From contig CAYFPM010000003.1 in NCBI GenBank assembly GCA_964345045.1, positions 6,038-70,037 of the forward strand: a DNA stretch of 64,000 bases, written 5' to 3'. Source of the DNA: an uncultured Gammaproteobacteria bacterium. GTDB lineage: Bacteria > Patescibacteriota > Patescibacteriia > Magasanikbacterales > UBA922. The stretch's first letter is position 1. Each line of letters begins with the position of its first letter. A program made the position numbers and the translations under genes. This document shows positions 13,027 through 63,981 of this stretch, piece after piece. A model generated the notes under the pieces. That model searched no databases. It was not told where the DNA came from and worked only from the letters and a program-made list of their open reading frames with translations.

Positions 13027-13034
13027 TTAGTAAA

Positions 13035-18531: not shown

Positions 18532-18532
18532 A

Positions 18533-20515: not shown

Positions 20516-20521
20516 ACCTAC

Positions 20522-21410: not shown

Positions 21411-22975
21411 AACTGTCTGTATACATTATGTCTGTATTTTGTAGCTTCAAAATCATAATTACTATGCAAATATTCAAAAAACCATTCTGGAATACTTGCT
21501 TCTGTTTCTACTGGTATCAAAATAATTTCTGGCTTATTTTTTGCAAATGAATTGGTAATCTCTTCTACTGCACCAGGATTTTCTACAAAGTAAGAACTAA
21601 AATATCTACCCGGAGCAGAACGTTCGGAGTAATAGTATATTTGCCCATTATGAATTCCCCAGTGGTAAATATAATCTTCTGGATTGGTAATTTCTTTGGC
21701 ATAGATCCCCAAATCTTTCATTGGAGCTTCGTTTAAATTTTTCAAATACTTTCTAGTGGTGTGATAATAATTAGTTTCAAATGGGATATAGAAAAGCAAC
21801 AAACTAAGAATTACACCCACAGTCAAAATTTTCTGATTCTTTTTATCTTTTAAATGAGGCTTTATTACTTTGCCACCAATACCTTGTTCTGTAAGCATAA
21901 TCTTGCCAATAACAAAACTAATCACAATACCAAACACAATTGCCCAAGAAGGAATAAAAGATTTGTAATGATGATCCAAATATCTTCCTTGAGCATTGTA
22001 CATTACAAAATCACTAAGCGCCCAAACCAAAATTGGGATATAAAGAGAAATTTTATTTTTTAATTTATCTTTCAAAACTACAAAGCCCAAAAGAGTAGCT
22101 GTCAAAAACCACAACTTGTCATTGAAAAAATGTCTAAAGAAACCAGAAATTCTGGTAATGGCACTTCCGGCTGTAATACCAAACAAAATCTGCCAAGCCC
22201 CTTCGTAATAATCTTGCCAGGTTCCACCAGACCATAAAATTGGTAAATAAATCAAAACCATAGCCAAAACTCCACCAACGGCACTTAACAAAAATTGTTT
22301 AAACAAAAATCCAAACTGTTTGCCACCTAAATAAACATGAAAAGCCAAAAGTGGGAAAGCATCTAATAGCGCAATTTGTTTGGTAGAAACTGCTGCCCCA
22401 AAAGAAGCTCCACTAAGAATTATCCATAAAGCAGCTTTGTTTTTGGACTTTGCAACATAAGCAAGAAGTACAAACCATACCGACAAAAGTCTAAACAAGT
22501 TCATAAAAGTTTCTGTCTCGGCAAAACCACCGTCTACACTAGCAAGTGGCATGGTAAGCATAAAAATAATAAGGGCAAACAGAGCAGCTCTTTTTTCGCT
22601 TAATCTTTTGGTAATATCATAAAGAACCAAGCCAGACAAAACTACAAAGATAATAGCCAAAAATCTTGGGAACCAAACATTAATCCCAAAAAGTAAGTGT
22701 GATAATGCAAACACCAGATAAACAAATGGTGTCTTGCTTTCTACTGTCCCACTATATGGCAATATTCCTTCGTCCACCCAAACTCTACCCATAAATGCCC
22801 AAGTGCCCTCGTCGTTTCCCATAGGCAAACCCAAAAAAGAAACTATAGAAAGTAAAAAAACTCCCAAAACCAAAATAAAAATTTTGTTGGTAATTAAGTT
22901 ATATATTTTGTCCAAATGTTTTGCTGCTTTCATAATTTTTTTGGAATATTTTACATTGAAAGTTTTTTTCTTCAA
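21407..22975 (-). CDS. GT-C fold membrane glycosyltransferase (ArnT/PMT family-like)
   Basis: Multi-TM N-domain with a first-loop DE motif (GNDEGTWAFMG) and a C-terminal soluble domain. Confidence 0.6.
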   Translation of the reverse strand: MKKKTFNVKYSKKIMKAAKHLDKIYNLITNKIFILVLGVFLLSIVSFLGLPMGNDEGTWAFMGRVWVDEGILPYSGTVESKTPFVYLVFALSHLLFGINVWFPRFLAIIFVVLSGLVLYDITKRLSEKRAALFALIIFMLTMPLASVDGGFAETETFMNLFRLLSVWFVLLAYVAKSKNKAALWIILSGASFGAAVSTKQIALLDAFPLLAFHVYLGGKQFGFLFKQFLLSAVGGVLAMVLIYLPILWSGGTWQDYYEGAWQILFGITAGSAITRISGFFRHFFNDKLWFLTATLLGFVVLKDKLKNKISLYIPILVWALSDFVMYNAQGRYLDHHYKSFIPSWAIVFGIVISFVIGKIMLTEQGIGGKVIKPHLKDKKNQKILTVGVILSLLLFYIPFETNYYHTTRKYLKNLNEAPMKDLGIYAKEITNPEDYIYHWGIHNGQIYYYSERSAPGRYFSSYFVENPGAVEEITNSFAKNKPEIILIPVETEASIPEWFFEYLHSNYDFEATKYRHNVYRQL

Positions 22976-23040
22976 AAGATTCCTGCCTACCGGCAGGCAG
23001 GTCTCACTCTACGGGTTCGAAATGACAATTTTTAAGTTAA

Positions 23041-23784
23041 TTAATTGCTCATTGTTCTTTGTTCATTGTTCTTTAATTTAACAAAGACATATTTAACAGT
23101 GAGCCAAGTCATACCCAATCCAAGCTTGGCGGCTTTCCAGACAGTACCGGTGTATTGAGAATCTCCAATTCTTGGCAAATACATTACCGGAATTTCTACA
23201 ATTTTTAATTTTCTACGCAAAATCCAAATCATCATTTCGGGAGAAAATTTACCATCCCCTTTGGAGTTTGGAAAAAGATCAATTATTTTTTGCAAAGCAT
23301 CCTTTCTTATTAATCTATAAGTACAACCAACATCTGTAATAGTGTGTCCATTGTGCAGTACTTCCAAAAGTTTGGCCAAACCCCAGTTGCCAAGCCTTAC
23401 CAGCCAAGGCATAAATGCCCCAGACCAAATTGTAGCTCTGGCAGTACGAGTACCAAATACTACTTCAAAATCTTCACTATACAACAAAAATTTGTGCAAA
23501 TCTTTGGCTGTAAAAGTTCCATCTACCTCGGTCATTATAATCAAGTCTCCGGTAGCTTCTTTCAAAGCTCTCATATAACCATGACCATAACCTTGTTTTG
23601 GCTCATGTACATATGTAGCTTTGGTAGCCAAAATTTCTGCTTTGGTATTGCCTACGGCATTGTTATCAACGGCAATAACTTCGTCCACAAAACCAGTGTC
23701 AAAAAATTGATTAATCACTTGCCTGACCGATTTTTCTTCGTTGTATGTAGAAAAAACTACACTAACTTTTTTCCCTCTATACAT
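23041..23784 (-). CDS. family-2 glycosyltransferase
   Basis: KVSVVFSTYNEEKSV ... AVDNNAVGNT GT2 N-terminal signature. Confidence 0.75.
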   Translation of the reverse strand: MYRGKKVSVVFSTYNEEKSVRQVINQFFDTGFVDEVIAVDNNAVGNTKAEILATKATYVHEPKQGYGHGYMRALKEATGDLIIMTEVDGTFTAKDLHKFLLYSEDFEVVFGTRTARATIWSGAFMPWLVRLGNWGLAKLLEVLHNGHTITDVGCTYRLIRKDALQKIIDLFPNSKGDGKFSPEMMIWILRRKLKIVEIPVMYLPRIGDSQYTGTVWKAAKLGLGMTWLTVKYVFVKLKNNEQRTMSN

Positions 23785-23787
23785 AAT

Positions 23788-25011
23788 TTATTTTATCCAA
23801 GTTTCTTGGTCTGGTAATTTTGGTCCGGTTTTAGTTTGTTTAGGATCATGTAGCCAAGGTTTTACAGCATGGCGTTTGGTGATTTCATAAAATTTTTCTT
23901 CGGAAATTTCTAACCAATCCAAAAGAACATCCAAGCTAGCCGGGCGCAAACCTTCCCACTCTTCTATCATTTTCATGCCTTCTTCTCTTGTCAATCTTCC
24001 GTTTCGTATATCTATAGAGGCCAAATGACTCATACGACCATAACCACGTTTGATAAATTTGAGATAATCTTGTACCCCCTGTAATTTATCTTCTATTTTT
24101 TCATAATTGTATTCTGGTGGAACTCCCTCTACCACATCGCCTTGCCAACCCAATTCTTTTTTTATTATCTCTACTTGTTTTTTTACATCCCAAGGTTGGT
24201 AACTCCCCAAACAGACAGAACGACAGTTAATAGCTTTGAGATCTTTTCTGGCTGGATAGGTATGGTATTTCAAATCATTCAAAGTGTACTCTGGATCACC
24301 TGGTTTGCCATATACCGGATCATTGAGAAAACCAACCATGTCTTGAGCCGTGATGCCCATATTTACAAACATATTAAACCTAGTTTCATCCACTTCTTCT
24401 ACTTCGTCGTATTTGTAATAACTAGTGTACTCTGCCGAAGGTTCGCCCCAGATCACCAATGGCACATTAAATTTGATTGCCATGTGCATAGGAAACGCAA
24501 AAATTCCGGTTTCTTGATACCAATAAATATTTCCTTTTCTCTCTAGCCCAATTCGCATTAATTTTTTTACCAACTTCCAATTGGTTTGGTAAGAAATAAA
24601 ATCCACGCCAAGTTTTTTCAAAGTTCTTTCTCTGTTGGCGACAGTCTTTGGGCGGATCATTTGGTGATCATACATTACAACCAAAGGTTTCAATCCATAA
24701 TCGTGAACCAAAGAATAAACTTGGTAAGTACTATCTTTGCCACCACTAAATGGCACAATACAATCGTAGGCATATTTACCACGATATTCGTCTAATAATT
24801 TTTTGAATTCTTCTTTTTTTTCTTCCCAATTTATTTCTTCGTGTTTGCGATCTATATTTTTACAAGCACTACAAACTCCAGCATCATCAAACATGATGCT
24901 TTCTTGTGTCTCTGGCATTACACATCTAGTGCAACGAATTAAATCTTTTGGATTACTAATTATTCTTTCGTTCATATTGTATATTGCTATTATTTTTGTT
25001 TTTTCATCCAA
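23788..25011 (-). CDS. N-acetyl sugar amidotransferase (WbpG/PseA-like, PP-loop ATPase)
   Basis: PFSGGKDSTYQV PP-loop and N-terminal CxxC pairs; it co-occurs with the HisH/HisF paralogues. Confidence 0.75.
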   Translation of the reverse strand: MDEKTKIIAIYNMNERIISNPKDLIRCTRCVMPETQESIMFDDAGVCSACKNIDRKHEEINWEEKKEEFKKLLDEYRGKYAYDCIVPFSGGKDSTYQVYSLVHDYGLKPLVVMYDHQMIRPKTVANRERTLKKLGVDFISYQTNWKLVKKLMRIGLERKGNIYWYQETGIFAFPMHMAIKFNVPLVIWGEPSAEYTSYYKYDEVEEVDETRFNMFVNMGITAQDMVGFLNDPVYGKPGDPEYTLNDLKYHTYPARKDLKAINCRSVCLGSYQPWDVKKQVEIIKKELGWQGDVVEGVPPEYNYEKIEDKLQGVQDYLKFIKRGYGRMSHLASIDIRNGRLTREEGMKMIEEWEGLRPASLDVLLDWLEISEEKFYEITKRHAVKPWLHDPKQTKTGPKLPDQETWIK

Positions 25012-25526
25012 ACCTGATCAAATTTTTTACCATTGTGGTCTAGGGCTTGTTTGTCTGTTTTGTAAATTTCAAAACCAGATTTTTCGTAAACTTTTATAGC
25101 GGCTTTGTTTTCGCTAATCACTCCAAGGTTTACTTCTTTTATACCCAAATATTCAAAGGCAAAACTAACAATCGCTTTTACTACCTCGGTAGCCACTCCC
25201 TTGCCCCAATAATTTCTTTCGCCAATTATTATACCCATTGTAGCACAGCTTTTGGCAAAATCGATTGGTTCTAGTTTTACATTGCCAATATGATTATTAT
25301 TTTCCTTATCAAAAATTCCAAAAAACAAACATCCGGGACTTTCATTTTTTTCTTTTATATAATTTTTCAACTCTGCCAAAGTAGTGTCTCTAGTTTCCAA
25401 ATATTGATTTACAATCGGATCTTTTAACCAGCTTACATATTTTTCCGAAGCATCTGTTTCTTCCAAAACTCTCAAGACAAATCTATCTGTTTCTATTTTT
25501 GTTTTGTAATTTTCTAAATTTTTCAT
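24990..25526 (-). CDS. GNAT family N-acetyltransferase (PseH-like candidate)
   Basis: 178 aa with an acetyl-CoA-binding-like segment NYWGKGVATEVVKAIVSFAF. Confidence 0.65.
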   Translation of the reverse strand: MKNLENYKTKIETDRFVLRVLEETDASEKYVSWLKDPIVNQYLETRDTTLAELKNYIKEKNESPGCLFFGIFDKENNNHIGNVKLEPIDFAKSCATMGIIIGERNYWGKGVATEVVKAIVSFAFEYLGIKEVNLGVISENKAAIKVYEKSGFEIYKTDKQALDHNGKKFDQVWMKKQK

Positions 25527-26650
25527 GCCACCAATTTTTTAACTATATTAATTACTTTGTCTTGATCTTCTGCGCTCAAGTCCGGATAGATTGGCAAAGA
25601 AATAATATTTTCATACAGATCTTCTGCTACAGGGGTCAAACCTTTTTTATAACCTAACTTTTGAAAATGTGGATGGTGATTGGTTGGCACATGATGAACT
25701 TGCACACCTATCCCGGCCTCTCTTAATTTTTTAAATATTTCTCCTCTTTTGCCATGCAAATCATTAATTAATCTAATTACATACAAATGCCAAGCTGATT
25801 TTACGTTTTCATTATCTTTTTCTGGAATTTCTATGTTTTTCAAATTTGCAAAAGCTTCGTTATATTTTCTTACAATTTCTCTTCTTTTGTTTACAAAATC
25901 ATCTAATCTCTTTAATTGACTAACCCCTAGAGCCGCTCCCAAATCTGTAAGTCTGTAATTTTGTCCCAAAAAGTGTTGTTCAAAATACCAATCTCCTGGA
26001 GATTCTATTTCCAAATTTTCTTTGGTAATGCCGTGGGTTACAAACATTTTCATTTTTTTGTAAAATTCTTCGCTATTTGTAAGCACGGCTCCACCTTCGC
26101 CCGTAGTAATATTTTTGGCAGGATGGAAACTAAAAGTTGTAAAGTCTGAGATTGAACCTATTTTTTCTCCCTTGTATGTAGCCCCCAGAGCTTGGCAAGC
26201 ATCTTCTATTACTAGTAAATTATGCTTTTTGGCAATCTCTTTTATTTTTTCCAATTCTACTGGGCGACCAGTAAAATCAATCGGTACAATCGCTTTGGTT
26301 TTTTCTGTAATTTTTTCTTCTATTTTGTTTGGGTCCAAATTGCCATTTGGCAAAGTATCTACAAAAACCGGCTTGGCTCCCAACCACAAACCAACATTAC
26401 TAGTAGCCGGAAAAGTAAGTGTACTTGTAATAAATTCATCTCCTTGAGAAATTTCGGCGGCAAAAAAAGCGGCTTGCAAAGCTGCCGTACCGCTATTCAT
26501 TACTACAGCATAATTGGCACCACAATATTTTGCCAAATTATTTTCAAATTCTGCTATTTTTGGACCCTGAGTCAATCTGTCGGAGCGCAAAACATCGAGT
26601 ACAGCCTCGATGTCTTCTTGATTTATAGACTGACGGGCGTATGGAATCAT
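25523..26650 (-). CDS. DegT/DnrJ/EryC1/StrS PLP aminotransferase (PseC/LegC-like)
   Basis: SFHPAKNITTGEGG with the PLP lysine, 375 aa. Confidence 0.85.
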   Translation of the reverse strand: MIPYARQSINQEDIEAVLDVLRSDRLTQGPKIAEFENNLAKYCGANYAVVMNSGTAALQAAFFAAEISQGDEFITSTLTFPATSNVGLWLGAKPVFVDTLPNGNLDPNKIEEKITEKTKAIVPIDFTGRPVELEKIKEIAKKHNLLVIEDACQALGATYKGEKIGSISDFTTFSFHPAKNITTGEGGAVLTNSEEFYKKMKMFVTHGITKENLEIESPGDWYFEQHFLGQNYRLTDLGAALGVSQLKRLDDFVNKRREIVRKYNEAFANLKNIEIPEKDNENVKSAWHLYVIRLINDLHGKRGEIFKKLREAGIGVQVHHVPTNHHPHFQKLGYKKGLTPVAEDLYENIISLPIYPDLSAEDQDKVINIVKKLVA

Positions 26651-27654
26651 AATTTATCAATTAAATCCATTAATTTTTGGTTATCGAGCCAATCATGATT
26701 GTTGTCACTGGCATAGATATAGCCTTCTCCCGGCACTTTGCCATCGCCATAATTATTTTGGTCCCACCAATCATGCTCTGGCAAAATCACAAAGTGATCA
26801 TCGTATTCTTTGGCATGGCGAGATTCTTCTTCGGTAAGTAGGGTTTCATGAATTTTTTCTCCTGGTCTAATACCTACCATATCTAGTTCGGCATTTGGCG
26901 CTAGAACTTGGATAAATTCTTTTACATTCATGCTTGGAATTTTTGGGACAAATATTTCTCCACCTTTCATACGTTCCATAGCTTTTAGGACAAAAGCTAC
27001 TCCCTGATCAAGAGTGATCCAAAATCTAGTCATCTCTGCATGAGTCAATGGAATTCTACCTAGTTTTTCTTTTTCTTTTATTACATGGTATAGGCTTCCG
27101 CGGCTACCTAACACATTTCCATATCTGGCAACTGCAAATTTGGTTCCGCCTTCTCCAGAGTAGGCATTACCGGTAATTGCTAATTTTTCGGCACAAGCTT
27201 TGGTAGCACCGTATAGGTTGGCGGGGTTGGCGGCTTTGTCGGTAGAGATTAACAAAACTTTTTCTACGCCTTGGTCTAGAGCAGCATTGATTACGTTTTG
27301 GGTTCCCAAAATATTGGTTTTTACAGCTTCAAATGGGTTGTACTCTACCATTGGAACTTGTTTTAGAGCTGCGCCATGAAATACAAAATCTACTATACGA
27401 AAAGCTCTATCTAGTCTTTCTTTATCGCGAATGTCGCCTATAAAAAAACGCAAGCGACCATCTGGATCTGGTATATTGGCTTGCATTTGGGATTGTTTTA
27501 GCTCGTCGCGGCTAAATACTATGATACGAGCGGCGTTGCTATGTTCTAGCAGGATTCTGGTACAGGCTTGACCAAAAGAACCGGTTCCACCGGTGATTAG
27601 GACTGTCTTTCCATCCAAATATGATAATGACATAATTTTGCTAATTTGAGGCAA
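26647..27654 (-). CDS. UDP-GlcNAc 4,6-dehydratase (PseB/FlaA1/CapD-like)
   Basis: KTVLITGGTGSFG and the CapD-like polysaccharide biosynthesis protein layout, first gene upstream of the aminotransferase. Confidence 0.8.
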   Translation of the reverse strand: MPQISKIMSLSYLDGKTVLITGGTGSFGQACTRILLEHSNAARIIVFSRDELKQSQMQANIPDPDGRLRFFIGDIRDKERLDRAFRIVDFVFHGAALKQVPMVEYNPFEAVKTNILGTQNVINAALDQGVEKVLLISTDKAANPANLYGATKACAEKLAITGNAYSGEGGTKFAVARYGNVLGSRGSLYHVIKEKEKLGRIPLTHAEMTRFWITLDQGVAFVLKAMERMKGGEIFVPKIPSMNVKEFIQVLAPNAELDMVGIRPGEKIHETLLTEEESRHAKEYDDHFVILPEHDWWDQNNYGDGKVPGEGYIYASDNNHDWLDNQKLMDLIDKL

Positions 27655-39680: not shown

Positions 39681-41096
39681 TTAATTCTTAATATTTCTCT
39701 TATATAAGCGAAGTTTACAGGTTTCTATAAAAAATTCAAGGCCAAACCCCAAGAGTAAAAATAAGGCTGGAAAAGATGGCATACGGTAACGTACATGGCT
39801 GGCCGGCCCCAAGGTAAGGAGGATAAAATACAAAGAAAGTGCTACTAATAAAACTAACTTGTAACCATACTTTTGCCAATTGTTTTTGTTTGCAAAACTA
39901 AAGAGTATGAGTAGATAAATAAGTGACCAAAGAGCCAAACTAAAAAATAAAATAGCTTGAAAGATATCAAATTTCTTAAAAACATTTATCAAGCCAAGAG
40001 GCCCTTTGGTTAGCAGTGTTTCTGTATAACTCACCCGCGCTATTTTTCTTTCTACTCCCATTACATCTTCCAGTATATATTCATACCCTGTTCCTAGCAT
40101 AGCTGGCACAGCCGAAACTGTATAAAATTTGGCAACAGACAAAGGATCTTTTTTTATAATTTCTTTGGTTTCTTCTACTAGTTCATCGTAGTATTTAAAA
40201 TTATTTATAACATCTTCGTATCTGTAATCTGGAGTTCGTTCTACAAATCTTTGCCAATGCAGTTTGGCAGCATCTATGTAACCCAAATTTTCTTCTTTCA
40301 TTACAACTATTGGCGCTACCCTGGCAAAAAGCATAAACGAATCAATGTTTGTAATTTTGCTTCTACCAAAAGTTTGTTCTTGTCGCAAAAGCCATGGAGA
40401 CAAAACTAATACAAAAACCAAAAGCAGTACAAATGTATGAAAAACAAATTTTTGCCAATCTCTAACTTGAAATAACAAATATCTGATTGCCAAAAGTATA
40501 ATTATAAATATTGGCAAATACAAAGCTACAGGTCTTGTAAGTACCAACAAACCAAGCAATACTCCGGAAATTATTATGTCTTTGCAATTTTTTGTTTGTG
40601 AATAGTAACGACCAAAAAAATAAATAAATAAAATTAGTAAAAAATTAAAGAATGTCTCGGTAGTAGCCAAAACAGCAGTCATAAGCATGTATGGCTCGAA
40701 AATATAAATAAGACCTACAAGCTTACCAACTCGCTCTGAAAAAAACATTTTGCCAATTTGATAAAGCAAAACAGCAGAAAAGCTAGCCAAGATATTTTGT
40801 AAAATTATAATTGCCCAAATATCTGAACCGGGTATTAATTTGGCCAATACCAAAAATATAGGATAAAGCGGTGTCCGATAAGCACTAGGCATTCCATCTC
40901 TGCTAAAGCCTTCGCCAATAAGCAAACTATCTGCCAAGTTCAAATAACTATGGGCATCCTCGTTTTCAAACCACAAAATTGATTCACCAAATTTTTGGTA
41001 TAGAAAAATGCTTACTAAAAGATGAATTAAAAAAGAAGCTACAAAAATTTTGGTAGCAAATTGGTGTTGTTTTAAAAAATCTTTAATCTTATTCAT
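39681..41096 (-). CDS. GT-C fold membrane glycosyltransferase (PMT_2/ArnT-like), paralogue of the N-domain of 60042..62681
   Basis: FENEDAHSYLNLADSLLIGEGF ... RTPLYPIFL closely parallels GNSDTHGYLSLAENIAKGNGF ... RTPLYPLYL in the other protein. Confidence 0.55.
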   Translation of the reverse strand: MNKIKDFLKQHQFATKIFVASFLIHLLVSIFLYQKFGESILWFENEDAHSYLNLADSLLIGEGFSRDGMPSAYRTPLYPIFLVLAKLIPGSDIWAIIILQNILASFSAVLLYQIGKMFFSERVGKLVGLIYIFEPYMLMTAVLATTETFFNFLLILFIYFFGRYYSQTKNCKDIIISGVLLGLLVLTRPVALYLPIFIIILLAIRYLLFQVRDWQKFVFHTFVLLLVFVLVLSPWLLRQEQTFGRSKITNIDSFMLFARVAPIVVMKEENLGYIDAAKLHWQRFVERTPDYRYEDVINNFKYYDELVEETKEIIKKDPLSVAKFYTVSAVPAMLGTGYEYILEDVMGVERKIARVSYTETLLTKGPLGLINVFKKFDIFQAILFFSLALWSLIYLLILFSFANKNNWQKYGYKLVLLVALSLYFILLTLGPASHVRYRMPSFPALFLLLGFGLEFFIETCKLRLYKRNIKN

Positions 41097-41951: not shown

Positions 41952-42338
41952 TTATATAGATAAATTTTTTATATAAAAGATTATATCATTAATAACATTA
42001 TCAAGCTCGTATTTAATTTGTTCATTCCTGTATCTCAAAACAAAATATCCGTTTTGTTGTAAATATTTTTGTCTAATTATATCTTTCTTTTTATTTTCTT
42101 TTTCTGCATGTATGTACCCATCTATTTCTATTATCAATTTCAACTCATGAGAATAAAAATCTACAATATAATAATCAATGTTAAACTGTCTTCTAAATTT
42201 AACCCCCAGTTGTTTTGCTTTTAATTTATACCACAATATTTTTTCCGCTTCAGTTTGACAAGTTCTTAGACACCTTCTTCTTTTTTTAAAAGATGCTTTA
42301 TTCTGGTAACGACCGATTGATTTCATATTGACCCCCAC
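41952..42338 (-). CDS. DUF559 (Vsr/Mrr-like restriction-endonuclease-fold) protein
   Basis: TEAEKILWYKLK ... FRRQFNIDYYIVDFY ... LIIEIDG ... RQKYLQQNGYFVLRY matches the DUF559 layout. Confidence 0.6.
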   Translation of the reverse strand: MGVNMKSIGRYQNKASFKKRRRCLRTCQTEAEKILWYKLKAKQLGVKFRRQFNIDYYIVDFYSHELKLIIEIDGYIHAEKENKKKDIIRQKYLQQNGYFVLRYRNEQIKYELDNVINDIIFYIKNLSI

Positions 42339-50270: not shown

Positions 50271-53200
50271 TTATGGCACAGCTTGCGGAGTTTCTCCCGG
50301 GCAGCAGAGAGCGCCATTGTCGGTAATATAGGTGCCCTGGGCGCAGCCATAGACCAGTGGCGCGCTTGGCGTACCTAGGTAGCGCAGTTCATTGCCCGAC
50401 CAGATTTCTACTCCGGTCACCGAGTTGGCATCCGGGGCATTGTACGAGCCACCAGTCCCCGGCCATTGATCGTAGACATGGGGAGGATTGGAGACGTAGG
50501 AGCACGTACTACAAATCTGATCGCTAGGGATACCCGAGACGTCGTTGCCATCGACCACACACGAAGCCAACCAGTATCTCCCAGTTGTTGGAATAGGCGT
50601 CGGTCCTCGGTAATGCAAGAACTCGGTCCAAGTGCACATATGCGAACCATTTCCGCAAGAGACATGGGCACTGCACTGGTCGAAGTTGGTACTCCAGCTA
50701 GATGTAGCACAGCCAACCATCATGCTGTCTGGGTAGACATCTTCGGTGTTGTAACCCGAGGCGCAAGTGGCCGGAGCGAGTGGAGCTGCTGCTCCAGAAT
50801 CTGGTTCGACTCCGGTGTCCGGAGTGCCGGTGTCAGGGGCTTCTCCAGAGTCTACGCTTCCACTATCTACTGTTGCTATTCCAGAATCTAGACTCCCGCT
50901 GTCGGTGATTCCCCCATCGCTGCTTGTGAAGATTTGAGGAGTGGCTCCGTAGCAACACAGGGCTCCGTTGTAGTCAACGTAGGTGCCTTGGGCACTGCCG
51001 TAGACAGCCGAAGTAGTTAGTGTTCCCAGGTGACGCGGGTCTCCATTGGGTCCCCAGATTTCTACGCCAGTGTAAGAGTTGGTGTTGGGGGCATTGAAGG
51101 CCACCCCACCTTCTTGCCACTGATCGTGGACATGAGGGGGATTGGAAACTTGGGCGCAAGAACTACAGATTTGGTCAGTCGGAGTGCCGGGGTTGTCGTC
51201 CCCATCAGTGACGCACGAGGCTAGCCAAAAGCGTTCTTGGGTGTAGACTTGGCTGCCGCCGCTGTAGTGATTGAACTCGCTCCAAGTGCACATATGGGAA
51301 TTGTCTCCACAAGAGACAGGGGCGTCGCACTGGTTGTAACCATTGCTCCAATTCAAGGTAGAGCAACCGATCATCATGCTTGTTCCAGGAATTGCTTCCG
51401 TGGGATGACCGGGAGCGCAAGTGGCTACTGCGGGGATACCGCTATCTGCTACTCCGGCGTCTACTTGAACGTTGGCTTGGCTGGCAGCTGGGAGAGGCGT
51501 AGTGCCTGGGCAACACATGGCGCCGTTTTCTGCAAGCGATGTGGGTTGAACCGAAGCATAGGCCAAAGGACCGCTCGACGAACCCAAACGACGACGTCCT
51601 GAACCTGGCCAGAGTTCTACACCGGCTACGGCATGAGGATCTGCATGCCCAAAGCTGGTACCGTCTTCGTGCCATTGATACTCAAAGTACATGGTCGAAG
51701 CGATGTTTTGGCAGTTGTAGCTACAAATCTCGTTGGTGGGCAAAGTCACCAGGGCTTCGGGGCTGTCGTGTACACAAGAGGCTAGCCAATACCGACCAAT
51801 GGCCGGAATGGGAGTGTTTCCACGGTAGTAGACATACTCGTCCCCAGTGCACATATGTGAGTTGCCTCCGCAAAAGCCGTTGGCTCGGCACTGGTTGCGT
51901 CCTTCTGTCTTTCCACCACAACCGACCATACCGGGAATAGCGTAGTCCGGGTTAGTGGTTTTCTCGTACCCTGCAGCACAACTGGCGTAGGTGATGCTGG
52001 GGTCGAGTGTGGGCGCGGTGCAGGTGCTGGTTTCTGTTGGCGAGACGCGTGGATCTTGGGTGCAGGTCTCGGTATTGACCAGTTCGCAAACGCGGTTGTG
52101 GGTATTGTCTACTCCACACTCTAGTGGGTAGGCAGAACAAACCCAGTCGTTGTCTGCTACGGTACACGACCGCATCGGGGTACAAGTGCTGGTCTCGGTA
52201 GGAGCCAGTCCCATGGTGTCGACACAAAGAACGTCGAGCTTTTGGCAGTCTCGACTTTGGGTGCCCAGGTAGTTGCAGCGGTCGTACTCGCCACAGCTCC
52301 AGTCATCTGCCGTACAGGGATCTGTGCTTTCTATGGCCGTAAGGCTTACGGCTCCGAGTTCCCTGACTTGGTTGGTGGCGGTATGGAGGCTTCGAGCCAG
52401 GATAGTGTAGTTTCCGGGGAGTGGATGCTCTAGGCTGACTCGGTGGTGGAGTTGTCCTTGGCCACCTCCGGTGGTGGGCACGGTGTAGGGGCCGGTGAGG
52501 AACGACAGGTCGTGTCGTTTGGCTCCGTTGTAGTAGACTTCGTAGTAGGTGTAGATGTCTCCGGGGGAGACGTTATGAATTTGAAAGTACAGGTAGTATT
52601 CCGGCCAGCCGGCGTAGATGGTGGTTGGCGGGATACATTCGTACTGGTTATTTATTTGGTTGTAGGTGGCATTTCCTTCGCAGAGGATGGCGGTGCCAGC
52701 CTGGCCAAAGCCAGTGCTCGAGGGATTGAGGTTGGCATCTGATCCGCTGGTTTGCAGGTGAAACAGGCTGGTGGAATCTAGCCCGTAGATGCCGGGTAGT
52801 GTAGACGTGGCTCCGAGGTAGGAACTAGTACACAGATTAGTTCCGGTGGAACTATTCTCTAGACAGTTCGTACCAGAGGGTGGATTGTTAGAACCGCTGG
52901 TAGCCACTTCGCAAACTCCCACTCCGCTGGGGAGGCCGTATCTTCCGCCTTGGGCAGGATTGCAGACTAGGCCGCTGGCACACTCCGTATCGCTCTCGCA
53001 GTGGCCCTCGCCAGCCTGGCACTGGCAGCCGCTGGAGCAATAGTAGTAATCTCCGTTTAGGTAGCCAGTGAGGCAGCGGGTGCCATCCGTGGCTCCGGGA
53101 ACGGATGCTAGTCTAAGTGCTCCTCCCTGGGGGTTGTATGCGAGATTGGACAAACCCGTATCTACCGTATAGGAAGGAATACCTCCAAGGGGGATTCTTT

Positions 53201-54284
53201 TTATTCGGTAATCGAACTCGAAACTGGGTTGGCTGGGCCAAGAAATTCCGCCTGTTTGGACGAACACTTCGAATCTCCATTTGGTCCAAACTTGTCCGGG
53301 TTGGCTATTGGCCAAAGCGTTATGGATTGTGATATTGGGCATCACATGTTTATAGATCACCAGAGTTCCATTGGAAACGCTGCTCCAGGCTGGATCCCAG
53401 TTAACGTTGATCCAGTTGGTCTCCTCGACCCATTCTCCTCGGCTTTCTTCTCCCCCGTTATCTGTTTCTCTATGTCCTACAACTCTAATACGTACCAGCT
53501 GGTCTCTCACACGCAGTTGGATTGCGGTGTAAGGGCTTTCGGTTTCGTAGAAGTCATAAAACGGAACCAGGGGATCGGAATCGTTCCCATCGTTTGACAA
53601 ACCTGCTCCAAATCTATTTGACAAGGGCAGGCAGCTTACGGGATTCCCAGAACTGTCTTGAGTGTAATGAACGCACGTCGTCGGGTTCGGGAGGATTGTG
53701 TAAGAAGCCGTTGGATTATACAAAGTATTGTTTGAAAGATATTGATTACCAGCAACCAAGTTGGCATATCCAGATATAGGCTCAGGTTTTACGCCTACAC
53801 CATTACAATACAATGCAAAATGCAAATGCATACCAGGACTCAGCGAACATGCAGATCCAGACACATTTCCAGTATTCCCAACAACTCCAATTTGCTGTCC
53901 CTGAAAAACATACTGACCATCTTGCACAAGCACACTATCAAGATGAGCATATCGAGTTTTGCACTCACCATGATTAATCAGAACAGCATTACCATAACCA
54001 CCGCTGTTTGGGGTGGGAACAGCGACAACTCCCTCTGCTGCAGCAAGAATGGGTTTCCCAATCGAATTGCAACCCGACTCAATAAAATCTACAGCATAAC
54101 GATCGTCAGAGGTGTCCCCACCATAATCGATATGAGAAGCAATATTATATCCTCTAGTAAGAATCCAACTCTCACCACTCGGGAACGGCAATCTCATATC
54201 CGGTACAGAGGCAGAGGCTTTCACAACAAAAAGCATCTGAATCTGAATAGCCAAGAGGATGGTTGAGATAACAAACCTATACAA
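50271..54284 (-). CDS. GC-rich giant secreted protein: N-terminal M23 (LytM-type) metallopeptidase + Cys-rich central region + three tandem about 170-aa Cys-rich repeats
   Basis: TTG start with AGGTAG upstream. Signal peptide ending VKASA. M23 motifs HIDYGGD (HxxxD) and GMHLHFALY (HxH). Three repeats each contain C..SHMCT..E(F/Y)..Y ... RYWLASCV ... GALCC. Strong GC and codon-usage contrast to flanks. Confidence 0.6.
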   Translation of the reverse strand: MYRFVISTILLAIQIQMLFVVKASASVPDMRLPFPSGESWILTRGYNIASHIDYGGDTSDDRYAVDFIESGCNSIGKPILAAAEGVVAVPTPNSGGYGNAVLINHGECKTRYAHLDSVLVQDGQYVFQGQQIGVVGNTGNVSGSACSLSPGMHLHFALYCNGVGVKPEPISGYANLVAGNQYLSNNTLYNPTASYTILPNPTTCVHYTQDSSGNPVSCLPLSNRFGAGLSNDGNDSDPLVPFYDFYETESPYTAIQLRVRDQLVRIRVVGHRETDNGGEESRGEWVEETNWINVNWDPAWSSVSNGTLVIYKHVMPNITIHNALANSQPGQVWTKWRFEVFVQTGGISWPSQPSFEFDYRIKRIPLGGIPSYTVDTGLSNLAYNPQGGALRLASVPGATDGTRCLTGYLNGDYYYCSSGCQCQAGEGHCESDTECASGLVCNPAQGGRYGLPSGVGVCEVATSGSNNPPSGTNCLENSSTGTNLCTSSYLGATSTLPGIYGLDSTSLFHLQTSGSDANLNPSSTGFGQAGTAILCEGNATYNQINNQYECIPPTTIYAGWPEYYLYFQIHNVSPGDIYTYYEVYYNGAKRHDLSFLTGPYTVPTTGGGQGQLHHRVSLEHPLPGNYTILARSLHTATNQVRELGAVSLTAIESTDPCTADDWSCGEYDRCNYLGTQSRDCQKLDVLCVDTMGLAPTETSTCTPMRSCTVADNDWVCSAYPLECGVDNTHNRVCELVNTETCTQDPRVSPTETSTCTAPTLDPSITYASCAAGYEKTTNPDYAIPGMVGCGGKTEGRNQCRANGFCGGNSHMCTGDEYVYYRGNTPIPAIGRYWLASCVHDSPEALVTLPTNEICSYNCQNIASTMYFEYQWHEDGTSFGHADPHAVAGVELWPGSGRRRLGSSSGPLAYASVQPTSLAENGAMCCPGTTPLPAASQANVQVDAGVADSGIPAVATCAPGHPTEAIPGTSMMIGCSTLNWSNGYNQCDAPVSCGDNSHMCTWSEFNHYSGGSQVYTQERFWLASCVTDGDDNPGTPTDQICSSCAQVSNPPHVHDQWQEGGVAFNAPNTNSYTGVEIWGPNGDPRHLGTLTTSAVYGSAQGTYVDYNGALCCYGATPQIFTSSDGGITDSGSLDSGIATVDSGSVDSGEAPDTGTPDTGVEPDSGAAAPLAPATCASGYNTEDVYPDSMMVGCATSSWSTNFDQCSAHVSCGNGSHMCTWTEFLHYRGPTPIPTTGRYWLASCVVDGNDVSGIPSDQICSTCSYVSNPPHVYDQWPGTGGSYNAPDANSVTGVEIWSGNELRYLGTPSAPLVYGCAQGTYITDNGALCCPGETPQAVP

Positions 54285-59184: not shown

Positions 59185-59925
59185 TTATTTTTGTTTTTTC
59201 AAATGCCGCTTCAATCGCCAAATCTTCATAAGCCCGGTAAAAGCATTTTTAATCTCTTTGAAATTGAGAGAACTTTCGCCTCTTACCCTGTTTACAAACA
59301 CAGTCGGCACTTCTCCCACTACAAGATCGCGATAATAAACACTCACCAAAATTTCACTAAGTGGAATAAAACCAGTACCTAGTCGGCCACAATGTTTTAC
59401 AATAATATCACTAGCTCGCTTGGAATAAACTCGGAAACCATTGGTGTAGTCCGAAACCGGTACTTGCAAAGTAAGTTTGGTAAGAATATTCGAAAGTTTG
59501 GAAAAAATTCTTCTCGAGAGTGGCCAATTTTCAATTCTACTTTCTGGCAAATATCTGGCTGCAATAAGCAAATCCAAATTTTCTTTTTGCAAATAATCTA
59601 CCAACTGCGGAATCTGACTAGGTGGATGAGAAAAATCTGCGTCCATTTCTACTACAATCTTGCAATCCCTATCAATCAATTTCCTTACTCCGGCAATAAC
59701 TGCCGAACCACGCCCCCCTTTTTCCTTTCGGTGTACCAAACCTACTCCAGGCAAATCTACTCCTTTTACAGCCTTGGAAGTCTCATCGTTTGGAGAATCA
59801 TCTACTACCAATACATCTGCTTCTGGTATATACTTTTTTACTTCCTTTATTAACTGGGCGATATTTTCTCCTTCGTTATAAGAAGGAATTACCACACCTA
59901 CTTTTTTACTCGTTTTATTTTCCAT
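59185..59925 (-). CDS. family-2 glycosyltransferase (polyprenol-phosphate sugar synthase, Dpm1-like)
   Basis: KVGVVIPSYNEGENIAQLIKEV ... VVDDSPNDET. The start is taken at ATG 59925, not the TTG-extended ORF. Confidence 0.8.
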   Translation of the reverse strand: MENKTSKKVGVVIPSYNEGENIAQLIKEVKKYIPEADVLVVDDSPNDETSKAVKGVDLPGVGLVHRKEKGGRGSAVIAGVRKLIDRDCKIVVEMDADFSHPPSQIPQLVDYLQKENLDLLIAARYLPESRIENWPLSRRIFSKLSNILTKLTLQVPVSDYTNGFRVYSKRASDIIVKHCGRLGTGFIPLSEILVSVYYRDLVVGEVPTVFVNRVRGESSLNFKEIKNAFTGLMKIWRLKRHLKKQK

Positions 59926-60041
59926 AAATAACAATTACAATCACGAAAAAAATACTGTTATCTCAATGCAAATTTAAAAATATAATTCTTAATCTCAAAT
60001 ACTACTAACTACAACCTACCCCCTACAACCTAAATATCTAA

Positions 60042-62681
60042 TTACTGTTTACTTTCTAGATACACTCCAAACACTTTATCAATATATTCAATTTCATCTT
60101 CTCGAAGAGAAGGGTGACACCCAATATAAAAACCATTTTTGTTGATATGATCTGCTACAGGATGTTCGTCGGTCATATCACCAAAGGCTTCAATTACAAA
60201 TGGTTGGTTGATTAATGGCAAAATGTGTCTGGTTTCTATATTGTGCAATTCCAAATAATGAGCAAAGTCATCGCGATTAATACCACTGTCTTTGTTGATC
60301 AAAATTGGGAACATCATAAATACATGTTTGTAATCTTCTCCCCAACTAGGCAATTGCAGTTGCTCGTATTTTGACAAAACCTCAATTAATTTTTTGGCAT
60401 TACTTTGTCTCTTACTAATTTCGTCTTCTATCCCATCTTCCATTTGTGCCAAACCAATAGCAGCTTCCATCTCGGTGGCGCGAAAACTATAACCAGGACG
60501 AACAAACGAAAATCTACGATTTACAATCTGCTTTAACTCATCGCTGCTTTTGCCTTTGTCATCGTCTATTTGCATATAAATACCATCGCGTCCGTGGTTG
60601 GCCAAGCTACGCAAAATCACAGCTAGCTCCGGATTATTGGTAGTAGCAAAACCACCAACTCCTGTAGCCATGATATGAGCTTGATAAGTAGAATAACAAC
60701 CAATATCACCAAAGCTACCAACTGGTTTGCCCTTTATGGCCGCAAACGAAGACTCACAGGCATCTTCAATCACTCGCAAATCATGTTTGCCTGCAATCTC
60801 CATTATTTTTTCCATGTCAGAAGCCAAGCCACACAAATGTGTTGGCAAGATTGCTTTGGTTTTGCTAGTAATTTTTTCTGCTATTTTTTCTGGATCAATA
60901 TTGTAAGTCTTGGGATCTACATCTACAAAAACCGGAGTTAATCTATTGTGAGTCACCACATTAACGTCCGAGACAAAAGTTATAGATGGAATAATTACCT
61001 CGTCCCCATCTTCCCATTTGTAAAATTCTTTCAAAGCTGCCAAAGAGATCCGCAAAGCACTGGTTCCACTATTTACAAAAATTGCAAATTTGGCATTGTG
61101 AGCTTTGGCAAACTCTGCTTCCAAAGTTTTGGTAAAAGGACCATAGCTAAGTCTATTGGTGTCCAAAGCTTTGTTGACATATTCTTTTACCCTAGGTGAA
61201 AGTTCACAAGTTCCCACCCCTATTTGGGTAGGCCATTTTTCAATTTTTTGGGTTTCTTCCATATTATTGTTTTTGTTAGGTTTGCTTATTCTACCCAAGA
61301 GACGGCTTTTTTTCAAGAGCAAATCCAGGCTATAAGCAAGTAGCAAAAATAGGTACGGATAAGCCAAAATTCTATACCTCACATAAACAGATGGGCCTAG
61401 AGCAAAAACAGAAAAATAAGCCACCATTCCTAACAAAAAAACAGCGCTAAGTAAATTTTTCTTATTTTTTCTATCTATTAACAAAGCGGAAATTATCAAA
61501 ATATAAATCAAAAACCAAACAGCCAACCCAAATACAAAAATCAAATTAAATAAATCAAATTTGAATATCCCTGCAAAAAATTGACCATACTCTTTTTGAC
61601 GCAAAAGTTCTGTAAAGTTTGGCTTGTTTACACTTCTTTCCAAGCCTACTGTTTCTAGTATCCGATCATAGCCTGTGGCAAAAAAAGCCGAAGTTCCCGA
61701 CAAAATATAATACTTCGAAACAACCGGCCAATGCTGTAAAACTTTTGTTTTTATTTCTTTTCTCAATTCTTGGTCATACAACAAAGTATGCTCCATTTTG
61801 AATCTATCAAAATTTTCTATTTTTTCTGGTAATTCTTTTATTAATTTGTCTACAGCTTCTCTGTAGGTAATATTGTGTTCAGTAGCTTCTGCCAATGGCA
61901 AAGTACGAAAATAAAGTACAAAAGTATCTACATTCGAAAGACGCCAAGAATTAAAAACCGATTTTTGACGAATAGCCCAAGGAAAAATAACTGCCAAAAA
62001 AGTAATTAAAAAAGCCAAAAAAGATAATAGTAATTTTTGCCAAGATAATTTTTTTAAAAAAGAAATAACCAATAGGACTACAAGAACCAAAGCCGGAGTG
62101 TACTGAGTGATAGGTCTGGTAAGCGTCGCAAGTCCAAAACAAAACCCTACCAAAAGTAAATAATTATGATCAGATTTAACCAACCAAAATTTAACTAGAA
62201 AATAAACTGCCCACAAAACCAACATTAGAAAAAGTGATTCGGACAAAGCCGCACTGTTTAAAAACAACAACAAAGGTTCTAGAGTAAAAAAGATGGTCGC
62301 CAACTTGGCAATTCTTTTGGAAAAAAGCAACTCCCCTATTTTGTAAACCAACACCGTAGAAATACCAAAAAACACAAACTGCCCCAAAACCAAAAAACCA
62401 ATTGGTAAGCCAAAAATATAAAACAAAGATAAATAAAGTGGATAAAGCGGGGTTCTAAGGGCAGATGTAAATTCATACATCATAAAACCATTTCCCTTGG
62501 CGATATTTTCTGCCAGGCTCAGGTAACCATGTGTATCCGAATTACCAACTACAAAAAAATCTCCACCAAACTTGGAAACAAGCAGCAAAGAAATTAAACT
62601 ATTCAAAAATATAGATATACAAAAAACCAGTGTTTCAAACTGATATTTTTGTATTATGTTTCTTATATTCCTCACAAACAA
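60042..62681 (-). CDS. fusion protein: N-terminal GT-C membrane glycosyltransferase (about 470 aa) + C-terminal DegT/ArnB-like aminotransferase-fold domain (about 400 aa)
   Basis: Single uninterrupted 879-codon frame. The N-domain is paralogous to 39681..41096. The C-domain has DegT-family blocks (FVNSGTSAL; VIEDACES; GCYSTYQAHIMATGVGG). The position of the PLP lysine appears occupied by His (compare SFHPAKNITTGEGG in 25523..26650). Confidence 0.6.
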   Translation of the reverse strand: MFVRNIRNIIQKYQFETLVFCISIFLNSLISLLLVSKFGGDFFVVGNSDTHGYLSLAENIAKGNGFMMYEFTSALRTPLYPLYLSLFYIFGLPIGFLVLGQFVFFGISTVLVYKIGELLFSKRIAKLATIFFTLEPLLLFLNSAALSESLFLMLVLWAVYFLVKFWLVKSDHNYLLLVGFCFGLATLTRPITQYTPALVLVVLLVISFLKKLSWQKLLLSFLAFLITFLAVIFPWAIRQKSVFNSWRLSNVDTFVLYFRTLPLAEATEHNITYREAVDKLIKELPEKIENFDRFKMEHTLLYDQELRKEIKTKVLQHWPVVSKYYILSGTSAFFATGYDRILETVGLERSVNKPNFTELLRQKEYGQFFAGIFKFDLFNLIFVFGLAVWFLIYILIISALLIDRKNKKNLLSAVFLLGMVAYFSVFALGPSVYVRYRILAYPYLFLLLAYSLDLLLKKSRLLGRISKPNKNNNMEETQKIEKWPTQIGVGTCELSPRVKEYVNKALDTNRLSYGPFTKTLEAEFAKAHNAKFAIFVNSGTSALRISLAALKEFYKWEDGDEVIIPSITFVSDVNVVTHNRLTPVFVDVDPKTYNIDPEKIAEKITSKTKAILPTHLCGLASDMEKIMEIAGKHDLRVIEDACESSFAAIKGKPVGSFGDIGCYSTYQAHIMATGVGGFATTNNPELAVILRSLANHGRDGIYMQIDDDKGKSSDELKQIVNRRFSFVRPGYSFRATEMEAAIGLAQMEDGIEDEISKRQSNAKKLIEVLSKYEQLQLPSWGEDYKHVFMMFPILINKDSGINRDDFAHYLELHNIETRHILPLINQPFVIEAFGDMTDEHPVADHINKNGFYIGCHPSLREDEIEYIDKVFGVYLESKQ

Positions 62682-62712: not shown

Positions 62713-63981
62713 CTATAATTTATAAACCACGATATCACCAAATTCTATTACCTTTTCCAAACCAAATCTATTATCTATTTCCCATTCTGGATTGTCTTTT
62801 TTGTCCCAGACCAGATACTCCACCGGATATCGTTTTAAAAATTCTATAAAATTATCATCTGTTAGTTTGGTATATTTTTCTACAGCATTTTCTATTACAC
62901 TATCTGGGAAACAACCCAGACATACATCTGGTAAAAATCTATATTGATAAGCAAAGACATAATCACTAATCTCATTTCTGTTTGCCTCGGCATAAATTGC
63001 AAAAGTGCTGGTTGGAATAGCCCCCAAATATTTATAAGCCAAATAACCATCCAAAAGTCTTTCATTGGGAGCCAAAGTATAAACCGTACTGCCAGTATAA
63101 TAAGAATCTCCATGGCTAGCAGCCGACAAAAATTCGGACATGCGGTGCGAAGTAAAAAACGGAGTGGCAACTTTTGTTTCTTGGTCAACCCATTCCAAAA
63201 ACGGCGCATATCTTTGTTCTTCTACTACTGTTGGCAAAGCTGTTTTGTAGCCAGTATATTGTGACAAAAATCCATTGTAAAAAGCCAAGGCAACTAGGAT
63301 AATCCCCAATACAAGCTTGGCAAAACGATCTTTATTAATTTTACCTACCAGAAAAAAAGCAAAAGTAACCAAAAATATAATTACAAGTGGAGTATTGTAA
63401 TACCAATGATAGTGATGATTGAAAAGATATAATCCAGTAATAACTTGTTCATTTACCACTACAACCCCTGCTATAAAAAAGGCCGTAAAAAAAGTTCTAA
63501 TATTTTTTTCAAACCATTTTCTAGTTAACAAAAACAAAACAAAAGTAACCAAAACCACTCTACTAAGATTTAATTGCCTGGTATGAACAAAACCAAATCT
63601 CGGTGAAGACTCTGCATACCAATCATGAGAACGCAAACCAAAAACATGCAGCAAATATGGCAGCCCCATAATACTAGCCCCAAGAGAAACAAAAAATACT
63701 TTTTTGGCTTGTTCTTTTTCTTTGTTAAAAAGATAAATCAAAAACAAAATTCCGTTTAACGCAAAAATAAATGTCCAGGTATAAAGATAAACATAAAAAG
63801 ACAAACCCAAAATAACCGTGGCAAAAATACCATAATAGGTTTGTTCTCTACTTTGTAGAAAACGCCAAAAAAATGTGAGGTAAGCAAAAAAGAACAAAGA
63901 ACTAACTTGCGGATTAATTGGCCGTCCATAATCTATAAAGCTTCCTGCACCAGACCAAGCGCTTGGTTTTAAAATATTCAA
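62713..63981 (-). CDS. multi-TM membrane protein with C-terminal soluble domain (possibly N-terminally truncated by the window edge)
   Basis: Hydrophobic helices through about 240 aa, then a soluble tail; the window ends 19 nt upstream. Confidence 0.35.
   Translation of the reverse strand: MNILKPSAWSGAGSFIDYGRPINPQVSSLFFFAYLTFFWRFLQSREQTYYGIFATVILGLSFYVYLYTWTFIFALNGILFLIYLFNKEKEQAKKVFFVSLGASIMGLPYLLHVFGLRSHDWYAESSPRFGFVHTRQLNLSRVVLVTFVLFLLTRKWFEKNIRTFFTAFFIAGVVVVNEQVITGLYLFNHHYHWYYNTPLVIIFLVTFAFFLVGKINKDRFAKLVLGIILVALAFYNGFLSQYTGYKTALPTVVEEQRYAPFLEWVDQETKVATPFFTSHRMSEFLSAASHGDSYYTGSTVYTLAPNERLLDGYLAYKYLGAIPTSTFAIYAEANRNEISDYVFAYQYRFLPDVCLGCFPDSVIENAVEKYTKLTDDNFIEFLKRYPVEYLVWDKKDNPEWEIDNRFGLEKVIEFGDIVVYKL

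Follow-up and report, generated by a model that had tools for sequence, protein, structure and literature searches.

Near one end of a 64,000-nucleotide stretch of contig CAYFPM010000003.1 (assembly GCA_964345045.1; the whole stretch is called the window in the following; GC content, ~35%), a single open reading frame (ORF) encodes a membrane-integral glycosyltransferase of the GT-C type and, in the same frame, a protein of the DegT/DnrJ/EryC1/StrS family. The ORF lies on the minus strand at positions 60042..62681 and comprises 879 codons from a TTG start to the TAA stop (included) with zero internal stops. A preliminary description of this DNA had proposed one uninterrupted frame joining two domains, and this is indeed the case: the junction DNA contains no stop codon, and the internal methionine, whose position had been given as about 61262, is encoded by the ATG at 61262 as residue 474. 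The N-terminal, PMT_2-type membrane domain (amino acids [aa] 1-462; 61296..62681, minus strand) was delimited with Pfam, an AlphaFold 2 (AF2) model, and Foldseek; the standalone GT-C protein of a syntenic relative (locus L040) ends opposite aa ~462. Next comes a linker (aa 463-473; 61263..61295, minus strand) which, aligned with the C termini of the GT-C proteins of L040 and L039, looks like a former stop codon and intergenic spacer that are now translated. The remainder is a DegT/DnrJ/EryC1-fold domain of the His type, that is, 3-dehydratase-like (aa 474-879; 60042..61262, minus strand), identified with Pfam and beginning at the apparent ancestral start, Met474. Chance is ruled out for both domains, because their matches have E values of 1e-9 to 1e-88. 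The fused protein is also present in two public assemblies, namely on an ENA contig of 60.8 kb (854 aa) and an NCBI/ENA contig of 229.7 kb (877 aa); the two versions are identical in sequence and differ only in the called start, and the window overlaps the ENA contig over 11,151 bp with 0 mismatches.

The C-terminal half is a complete DegT-family fold, as had been proposed from the sequence. The Pfam model DegT_DnrJ_EryC1 (PF01041) matches aa 498-867 with 296.3 bits (cut-off, 19.8) and the match spans the whole domain (profile positions 7-355 of 360). Aminotransferases of this family, such as PseC, WecE, ArnB, and Per, have a Schiff-base lysine in the motif S-x-x-x-x-K; the fused protein has a histidine, His669 (codon at 60675..60677, minus strand), in that column, and all NCBIfam aminotransferase equivalog scores of the DegT half are far under their cut-offs. 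The replacement of the lysine by a histidine had already been suggested, together with an alignment that would place the catalytic position rigorously, and both lines of evidence agree with it. By BLASTP, His669 pairs with the lysine of the window's own Lys-type DegT protein (25523-26650, SFHPAKNITTGEGG). By HMMER alignment to solved structures, it falls on the column of K186 of perosamine synthase (GNK in the wild type, GNA in the mutant; 3dr4), of H220 of the CDP-6-deoxy-L-threo-D-glycero-4-hexulose 3-dehydrase E1 (also RfbH or DdhC; PAHH in the wild type, 3bcx; PAKH in the mutant, 3bb8), and of H188 of the GDP-4-keto-6-deoxy-D-mannose 3-dehydratase ColD (YSHH in the wild type, 2gms; YSNH and YSKH in the mutants 3b8x and 2r0t); no lysine of the fused protein lies there. 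The wild-type and mutant structures differ solely at the column tested and, therefore, mark the catalytic position. The exchange of Lys for His is described as the most important difference between the sugar 3-dehydratases (E1, ColD, and SpnQ) and the aminotransferases, with the histidine serving as the catalytic acid/base; E1 and SpnQ have a [2Fe-2S] cluster, and ColD has none (PMC8987622).

The histidine is a property of a large clade. In an exhaustive search of 1.84 billion representative proteins, of which the best 150 were considered, the equivalent of His669 was found in 122 of 137 aligned domains, as part of the motif C-F-S-T-Y-x-A-H-x-x-x-T-G-V-G-G, and a lysine occupied this column only in more distant aminotransferases with a TGEGG motif. 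Furthermore, the histidine is invariant in the 120 closest homologues and was present in 86 of 86 further loci. The DegT half keeps ~98 residues that are invariant in the clade and has just four deviations, all conservative, at columns with a consensus of at least 90%, and hence the domain is not decaying. Homologues with a named origin belong to Candidatus Ryanbacteria, Harrisonbacteria, Paceibacterota, the "Patescibacteria group," and DPANN archaea, and the window itself most likely stems from a patescibacterial (CPR) genome. In their source annotations, the standalone His-type homologues are called "perosamine synthetase," "dTDP-4-amino-4,6-dideoxygalactose transaminase," or "DegT family aminotransferase." Since the Schiff-base lysine is missing, such aminotransferase-type names are doubtful and probably wrong.

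Additional features place the DegT half close to the 3-dehydratases. With ColD (2gms, 3b8x, 2r0t, and 3gr9), it shares the DegT/fold-type-I scaffold, the histidine on the lysine column, an insertion after the HG motif, the lack of a [2Fe-2S] cysteine motif, and a similar length with an end-to-end alignment. With E1 (3bcx and 3bb8), it shares the histidine (H220), Cys642 (C193 of E1), and the insertion. This insertion, which precedes a conserved G-Y/F-x-x-R, also occurs in E1, ColD, and 9wvy, a putative dehydratase, but perosamine synthase lacks it; its median length is 28 to 34 residues in His-type domains versus 13 in Lys-type domains. E1 is also the best PDB match of the C-terminal half of the domain (108 bits, compared to 86 for ColD and at most 70 for aminotransferases, by HMMER), and RfbH is the best NCBIfam model for the whole DegT half. 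On the other hand, the RfbH match reaches 238.1 bits compared to an equivalog cut-off of 423, and of the four cysteines that hold the cluster in E1 (C193, C251, C253, and C261), the last three have no counterpart: CYCAPGCDNTC of E1 lies opposite GIYMQIDDD..K. Cysteines are conserved in the clade at positions 642, 662, and 855, and only Cys642 matches a cluster cysteine of E1. An E1-type mechanism with an Fe-S cluster was therefore rejected, and electron transfer of the E1 type is unlikely; in addition, no E3-type reductase gene adjoins the fused gene in the window, unlike in locus L038, which has a reductase gene resembling ferredoxin-NADP reductase (FNR). ColD, in turn, is only ~30% identical and reads S-H-H-I-A-T-M-E-G-G where our protein reads A-H-I-M-A-T-G-V-G-G, and it lacks both the fusion to a membrane protein and an invariant motif of our clade, HGRD-x-IY-xxx-DDD (aa 696-708; 60558..60596, minus strand). 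This motif lies in the dehydratase-type insertion, at the place of the three E1 cysteines, and may serve to bind a metal, a nucleotide, or a partner. Because of the low RfbH score, the similar distance to several families, the missing cysteines, and the motifs of its own, we do not call the DegT half an orthologue of RfbH or ColD; judged from these features, it is a new, probably ColD-like member of the His-type (3-dehydratase-like) branch.

The N-terminal half matches Pfam PMT_2 at aa 80-232 with 38.1 bits (cut-off, 26.1). Its proposed paralogy to the gene at 39681-41096 was borne out, as both proteins are of the PMT_2 type and share 33% identity. The full-length AF2 model, built from a mixed multiple-sequence alignment, was poor for this half, and MAFFT misaligned the GT-C rows; that model was used for the linker and the C-terminal domain only, and the helices were counted in a dedicated AF2 model of the GT-C half (predicted local distance difference test [pLDDT] score, 81; predicted template modelling [pTM] score, 0.84). 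In the full-length model, the linker region (aa ~461-486) is a coil with a pLDDT of <50 from aa 461 to 475/486 and is predicted to be disordered. The dedicated model has ten helices of transmembrane (TM) length (14-38, 94-119, 122-141, 148-169, 172-186, 190-210, 214-243, 377-402, 407-426, and 434-466), a first outer loop with two short juxtamembrane helices, and a helical domain outside the membrane (aa 253-372). Foldseek matched it to STT3, PglB, AglB, ArnT, and Pmt1/2 with a probability of 1.0 and TM-scores of ~0.5, so that the fold, with a multi-TM core and a long first outer loop with juxtamembrane helices, is that of GT-C enzymes. Positive charges are found at the N terminus, in the loops SKR, KKLSWQK, and IDRKNKKN, and in the tail KKSRLLGRISKPNK, which fits an N-in/C-in orientation with aa 253-372 outside. 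By model and charge pattern, the GT-C half thus appears to be a 10-TM enzyme whose termini both lie on the cytoplasmic side, and the DegT domain is predicted to be there as well, a location compatible with an active tethered enzyme, since nucleotide sugars, pyridoxamine 5'-phosphate (PMP), and glutamate would be available there. Asp49 (codon at 62535..62537, minus strand), with which the first outer-loop helix begins, is the conserved acidic residue expected of GT-C enzymes and a candidate for the catalytic aspartate, a role presumed by analogy with GT-C enzymes in general; it is kept in 93% of 14 GT-C homologues (Tyr53 in 100%) and is also present in L039 and L040.

The fused gene is part of a conserved gene order. 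The window and the loci L040, L042, and ERZ27297570, one of these relatives on a 597-kb contig, share the sequence of a glycosyltransferase of family 2 (GT2), a protein of 570 to 574 aa, a PMT_2 protein, a DegT protein, and a GT2 of ~250 aa, followed, on the opposite strand, by Capsule_synth and Polysacc_synt. In the three relatives, the PMT_2 proteins have 458 or 459 aa, and the DegT proteins have 404 or 405 aa and are 65 to 66% identical to the fused domain. Considering the seven closest-lineage contexts, a PMT_2-type GT-C gene is in the DegT cluster in six (directly upstream in three; 2 kb downstream in L043), and the ~250-aa GT2 directly follows DegT in five, the order that the window has as well. 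In just 4 of 80 more distant His-type loci was there a weak GT-C match within 5 kb, and none of the 80 has the three-gene module; the tight GT-C/DegT adjacency is lineage-specific. The downstream GT2 of the window (249 aa; 59185..59934, minus strand) belongs to Pfam Glycos_transf_2 and is kept in synteny in L039 to L042 and ERZ27297570; its best NCBIfam matches (PpgS, ArnC, AglJ, PgfS, and dolichyl-phosphate hexose transferase) are all below the equivalog cut-offs. The conserved upstream protein (62713..63981, minus strand, continuing past the window; L001:8176-9894) reaches 572 aa in the longer contig; it matches neither Pfam nor NCBIfam and is kept directly before the GT-C gene in the window, L040, L042, and ERZ27297570. 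The cluster also includes, ~9 kb upstream and shortly beyond the end of the window, genes for RmlC (207.7 bits; cut-off, 155.75) and for an RmlB-like dTDP-glucose 4,6-dehydratase (279 bits on a truncated fragment of 245 aa). In L039 (6573-7907) and L041 (3618-4994), a gene for a flavin adenine dinucleotide (FAD)-dependent oxidoreductase (PRK07233; 398 bits versus 252) is located between GT-C and DegT(His). In L038, the gene for a DegT homologue with 72% identity is followed by genes for an FNR-like flavin reductase and two 4,6-dehydratase-like short-chain dehydrogenases/reductases (SDRs). The contexts of both the window and L038 are compatible with a dehydratase function of the DegT protein.

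How the fusion arose is explained by the syntenic relatives, because there GT-C and DegT are adjacent but separate genes, with gaps of 112 nt in L040, 78 nt in L042, and 31 nt in ERZ27297570. The GT-C protein of L040 ends with LPKKR and a stop codon, opposite LLKKSR of the fused protein, which then continues with LLGRISKPNKNNN-M474. Compared to the orthologues, a stop codon has been lost, which leads to read-through of 11 former spacer codons into Met474. Consistent with two ancestral genes, standalone GT-C homologues of ~458 aa from the representative search align to aa 2-458, and all close relatives of the C-terminal domain (the 120 closest homologues) are standalone proteins of ~400 aa with at most 72% identity, covering 97 to 100% of the segment from Met474. 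A search for the fusion in related genomes had been recommended; it retrieved no second case of GT-C joined to DegT from the best 150 of the 1.84 billion representatives, the 120 closest homologues, 36 species-representative genome loci, and 80 metagenome loci, and the fusion is thus a singleton. Of the "novel architecture" suggested before, the uniqueness of the pairing in the databases searched holds; judged from the alignments, however, it looks like a recent stop-codon loss between neighbors rather than an evolved architecture.

In sum, we consider it the best explanation, with a probability of roughly 0.55, that the ORF is a stop-loss fusion of two linked pathway neighbors, a competent GT-C glycosyltransferase and a cluster-free, ColD-like, PMP-dependent sugar 3-dehydratase. 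Both halves appear to be catalytically competent. We infer the dehydratase chemistry, the substrate, the donor lipid, and the acceptor as follows. In the DegT half, PMP would form a Schiff base with a nucleoside diphosphate (NDP)-4-keto sugar, His669 would take the C4' proton, and the C3 hydroxyl would leave, giving a 3-deoxy-4-keto sugar; a candidate substrate is dTDP-4-keto-6-deoxyglucose, which the RmlB-like enzyme encoded upstream could provide. The GT2 would load the finished sugar onto polyprenyl phosphate, and it is this adjacent gene that suggests a polyprenyl-phosphate-linked donor for the GT-C half. After flipping, the GT-C half would transfer the sugar to a cell-surface acceptor via its outward site at Asp49, while the DegT domain would stay close to the membrane on the cytoplasmic side, held by the flexible linker, because both termini of the GT-C half are predicted to be cytoplasmic. 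The fusion marks a functional link between pathway neighbors in the sense of a Rosetta stone and creates no new mechanism.

Several observations weigh against this explanation. As to the chemistry, none of the solved PDB structures belongs to the His-type subclade, the RfbH score is well under its equivalog cut-off, and at full length the DegT half is nearly equidistant from perosamine synthase (186 bits), E1 (180 bits), and ColD (173 bits); moreover, it has TGVGG in place of TGEGG or MEGG of the solved dehydratases, and its invariant DDD motif is without explanation. As to the topology, the membrane orientation is a prediction only. As to the fusion itself, it is a singleton without a sequence-divergent second example, so that selection for the fused state is not demonstrable, and the A7 run described below is known from the assembled sequence alone. 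DegT-fold enzymes are obligate dimers (PMC8987622), and the fused protein must therefore dimerize in the membrane. Finally, a Shine-Dalgarno-like motif precedes only 3 of 34 genes of the genome, and the region upstream of Met474 is A/T-rich, a typical start context; a free DegT protein may thus still be made.

We also infer that cells produce the fused polypeptide in active form, and two alternative explanations bear on this point. Eleven codons before Met474, within the codons of K459, K460, and S461, there is a run of seven adenines (61307..61313, minus strand), and in a simulation, A6 led to a stop after 464 aa and A8 to one after 463 aa, close to the length of the orthologous GT-C proteins (458 to 459 aa). 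As either change restores a stop, a single-base error would fake the fusion, which may then be an assembly artefact or a rare variant, if A7 was miscounted or a base of the former stop codon was called wrongly. The separate GT-C and DegT genes of all relatives and the absence of the fusion from the other sequences searched speak for this explanation, and the two identical assemblies may share the same reads. It is nevertheless improbable: the 60.8-kb and 229.7-kb assemblies agree at the junction, homopolymers of seven bases are usually assembled correctly from short reads, and the in-frame KKSR is nearer to KKR of the orthologue than the ends produced by A6 (KKAVSWVE-stop) or A8 (KKKPSLG-stop). 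The stops after the A7 run are not special either, since off-frame stops come approximately every 10 codons in this AT-rich ORF. For the same reason, and with four other homopolymers of at least seven bases at hand, programmed slippage or phase variation at A7 was rejected. The junction with a variable A run was not found in Joint Genome Institute (JGI) metagenomes, from which the population is absent, so that this search is silent on A6 and A8. A real but neutral read-through, in which most DegT is still translated separately from Met474 and the 100-kDa fusion is a tolerated by-product of a recent stop loss, is somewhat easier to conceive, yet still unlikely. The start context of Met474, the lack of divergent copies, and the need of the DegT fold for dimerization all fit it, nothing opposes it directly, and it differs from the explanation favored here only in the dominant product. 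What can be held against it is that fusions are common in both clades, which indicates that such products are tolerated and have often become fixed. Proteins of the DegT clade occur as GT2-methyltransferase-DegT(His), DegT(His)-GT4, SDR-DegT(His), DegT-DegT, and DegT(His) with ~230 aa without assignment, and those of the GT-C clade as GT4-GT-C, GT2-GT-C, and radical-SAM/SPASM-GT-C (P0013, P0011, P0012, P0023, P0005, P0142, P0099, and P0002). A literature search on GT-C/DegT fusions or deoxysugar pathways of the candidate phyla radiation (CPR) retrieved nothing relevant.

Other functions of the DegT half have to be weighed in a similar way. The preliminary description had regarded it as a catalytically dead aminotransferase fold that serves as a substrate-recognition module and passes a 4-amino sugar to the GT-C half. 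The Schiff-base lysine is truly absent and the domain is physically joined to the GT-C half, as this idea demands. The missing lysine does not make the domain dead, however, since the exchange for histidine is the catalytic signature of 3-dehydratases such as E1, ColD, and SpnQ and is almost without exception among thousands of standalone homologues, which lack a GT-C partner to serve; the other clade-invariant residues are nearly all retained. Moreover, GT-C active sites face outward and use lipid-linked rather than nucleotide-linked donors, and a DegT domain on the predicted cytoplasmic side, opposite the GT-C site at Asp49, is unfit as its substrate-recognition module. A 4-amino sugar is not expected either, as a His-type enzyme should deoxygenate C3 and leave no amino group. 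We regard a dead recognition module as barely credible. Less remote, but still rather doubtful, is a different PMP- or pyridoxal 5'-phosphate (PLP)-dependent reaction of the His-type domain on a keto sugar, such as a transamination that proceeds without an internal aldimine, or an epimerization. Its best full-length PDB match is indeed an aminotransferase (perosamine synthase), ColD carries out a glutamate-dependent half-transamination, and the low RfbH score and the TGVGG and HGRD...DDD motifs set the domain apart from the solved dehydratases. Against such a reaction stand the co-occurrence of the histidine with the dehydratase-type insertion, the proximity of the C-terminal half to E1 and ColD, and the E1/E3-like context of the 72%-identical homologue of L038 with its flavin reductase and SDRs. 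It is also imaginable, with very little probability, that the tethering is no accident and that the substrate of the DegT(His) subclade is a keto sugar carried by polyprenyl phosphate rather than a nucleotide sugar, with the reaction taking place at the inner side of the membrane. The order of events would then be GT2, oxidation by the FAD-dependent oxidoreductase of L039 and L041, DegT(His), flipping, and GT-C. Such a route would have a parallel in the remodeling of lipid-linked sugars by DprE1/DprE2 or ArnD. If true, the fusion would give a first physical indication that CPR bacteria tailor deoxysugars by a lipid-linked route.

The logic of ArnB and ArnT in the aminoarabinose modification of lipid A, to which the locus had been compared, is apt at the level of the operon, since one locus combines the three enzyme classes of ArnB-ArnC-ArnT, namely the DegT family, GT2 of the polyprenyl-phosphate type, and GT-C. 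At the level of the single proteins, the comparison fails: the DegT half has a histidine and reaches 162.8 bits with ArnB (cut-off, 631), the GT2 reaches 61.5 bits with ArnC (cut-off, 529), and the GT-C half is without any NCBIfam match, so that no equivalog threshold of an Arn protein is attained. Furthermore, genes equivalent to ArnA or ArnD are not adjacent, and the CPR-type host presumably has no lipid A. Another parallel is offered by the three-component extracytoplasmic glycosylation systems of Gram-positive bacteria, which consist of a GT2 (CsbB/GtlA), a flippase (GtcA), and a GT-C enzyme (YfhO/GtlB); the cytoplasmic GT2 makes a C55-P-sugar, and the GT-C enzyme transfers it outside to a wall polymer (PMC7389260). 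By analogy, the GT2/GT-C pair described here likely follows the same logic. These systems use common sugars and have no sugar-modifying DegT enzyme, whereas in the locus studied here no GtcA-like flippase was identified and the GT-C enzyme is of the PMT_2 type with 10 TM helices. Bi- and trifunctional deoxysugar enzymes are known to arise via gene fusion (PMC8987622). The protein described here resembles them in that pathway neighbors are fused, and differs in the pairing of GT-C with DegT, which occurs in no other sequence searched.

The fused gene belongs to a glycan-biosynthesis island that makes up ~50 kb of the window. A nonulosonic-acid-like gene set of the pseudaminic/legionaminic type (15517-27654, minus strand) encodes a PseB-like dehydratase, a Lys-type DegT, a GNAT protein, NeuB, a HisF/HisH-like amidotransferase pair, a formyltransferase-like ORF, and a GFO/IDH/MocA oxidoreductase. 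At 28208-35142 (minus strand), genes for a LuxC acyl-CoA reductase, a LuxE acyl-protein synthetase, an AMP-binding ligase, and a phosphopantetheinyl transferase adjoin aminoglycoside-N-acetyltransferase-like and DUF4910 genes; this set may be a route of acyl or aldehyde decoration within the island. A small DUF559 (endonuclease-like) ORF is located among glycosyltransferase genes at 41952-42338 (minus strand). The ORF at 50271-54284 (minus strand; 1337 aa) has a GC content of ~0.52 compared to ~0.35 for the genome, no tandem repeats, and Peptidase_M23 (aa 74-167) as its sole Pfam match; the independent ENA contig starts within it, at window position 52850, which suggests an assembly-breaking region. 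The GC-rich stretches at 6000-8000 and 10000-14000 (0.47-0.49) have long overlapping ORFs on both strands. Rfam detected no RNA family in the window, including no rRNA in these two stretches.

Each of the two fused genes is individually ordinary; their pairing is of use mainly as a Rosetta-stone link and also draws attention to a His-type DegT subclade that is probably widely misannotated. Thousands of CPR and DPANN proteins named "aminotransferase" or "perosamine synthetase" carry the histidine and are better regarded as a 3-dehydratase-like subclade, and their re-annotation bears on the surface sugars of these organisms. The fusion is a single, possibly recent event and would gain weight only if it were expressed and advantageous. 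Nevertheless, the fusion and the gene order GT-C/DegT(His)/GT2 connect a deoxysugar step in the cytoplasm with a lipid-dependent glycosyltransferase that faces outward, and thereby provide a testable three-gene module of surface glycosylation for the Patescibacteria, whose envelopes are poorly understood.

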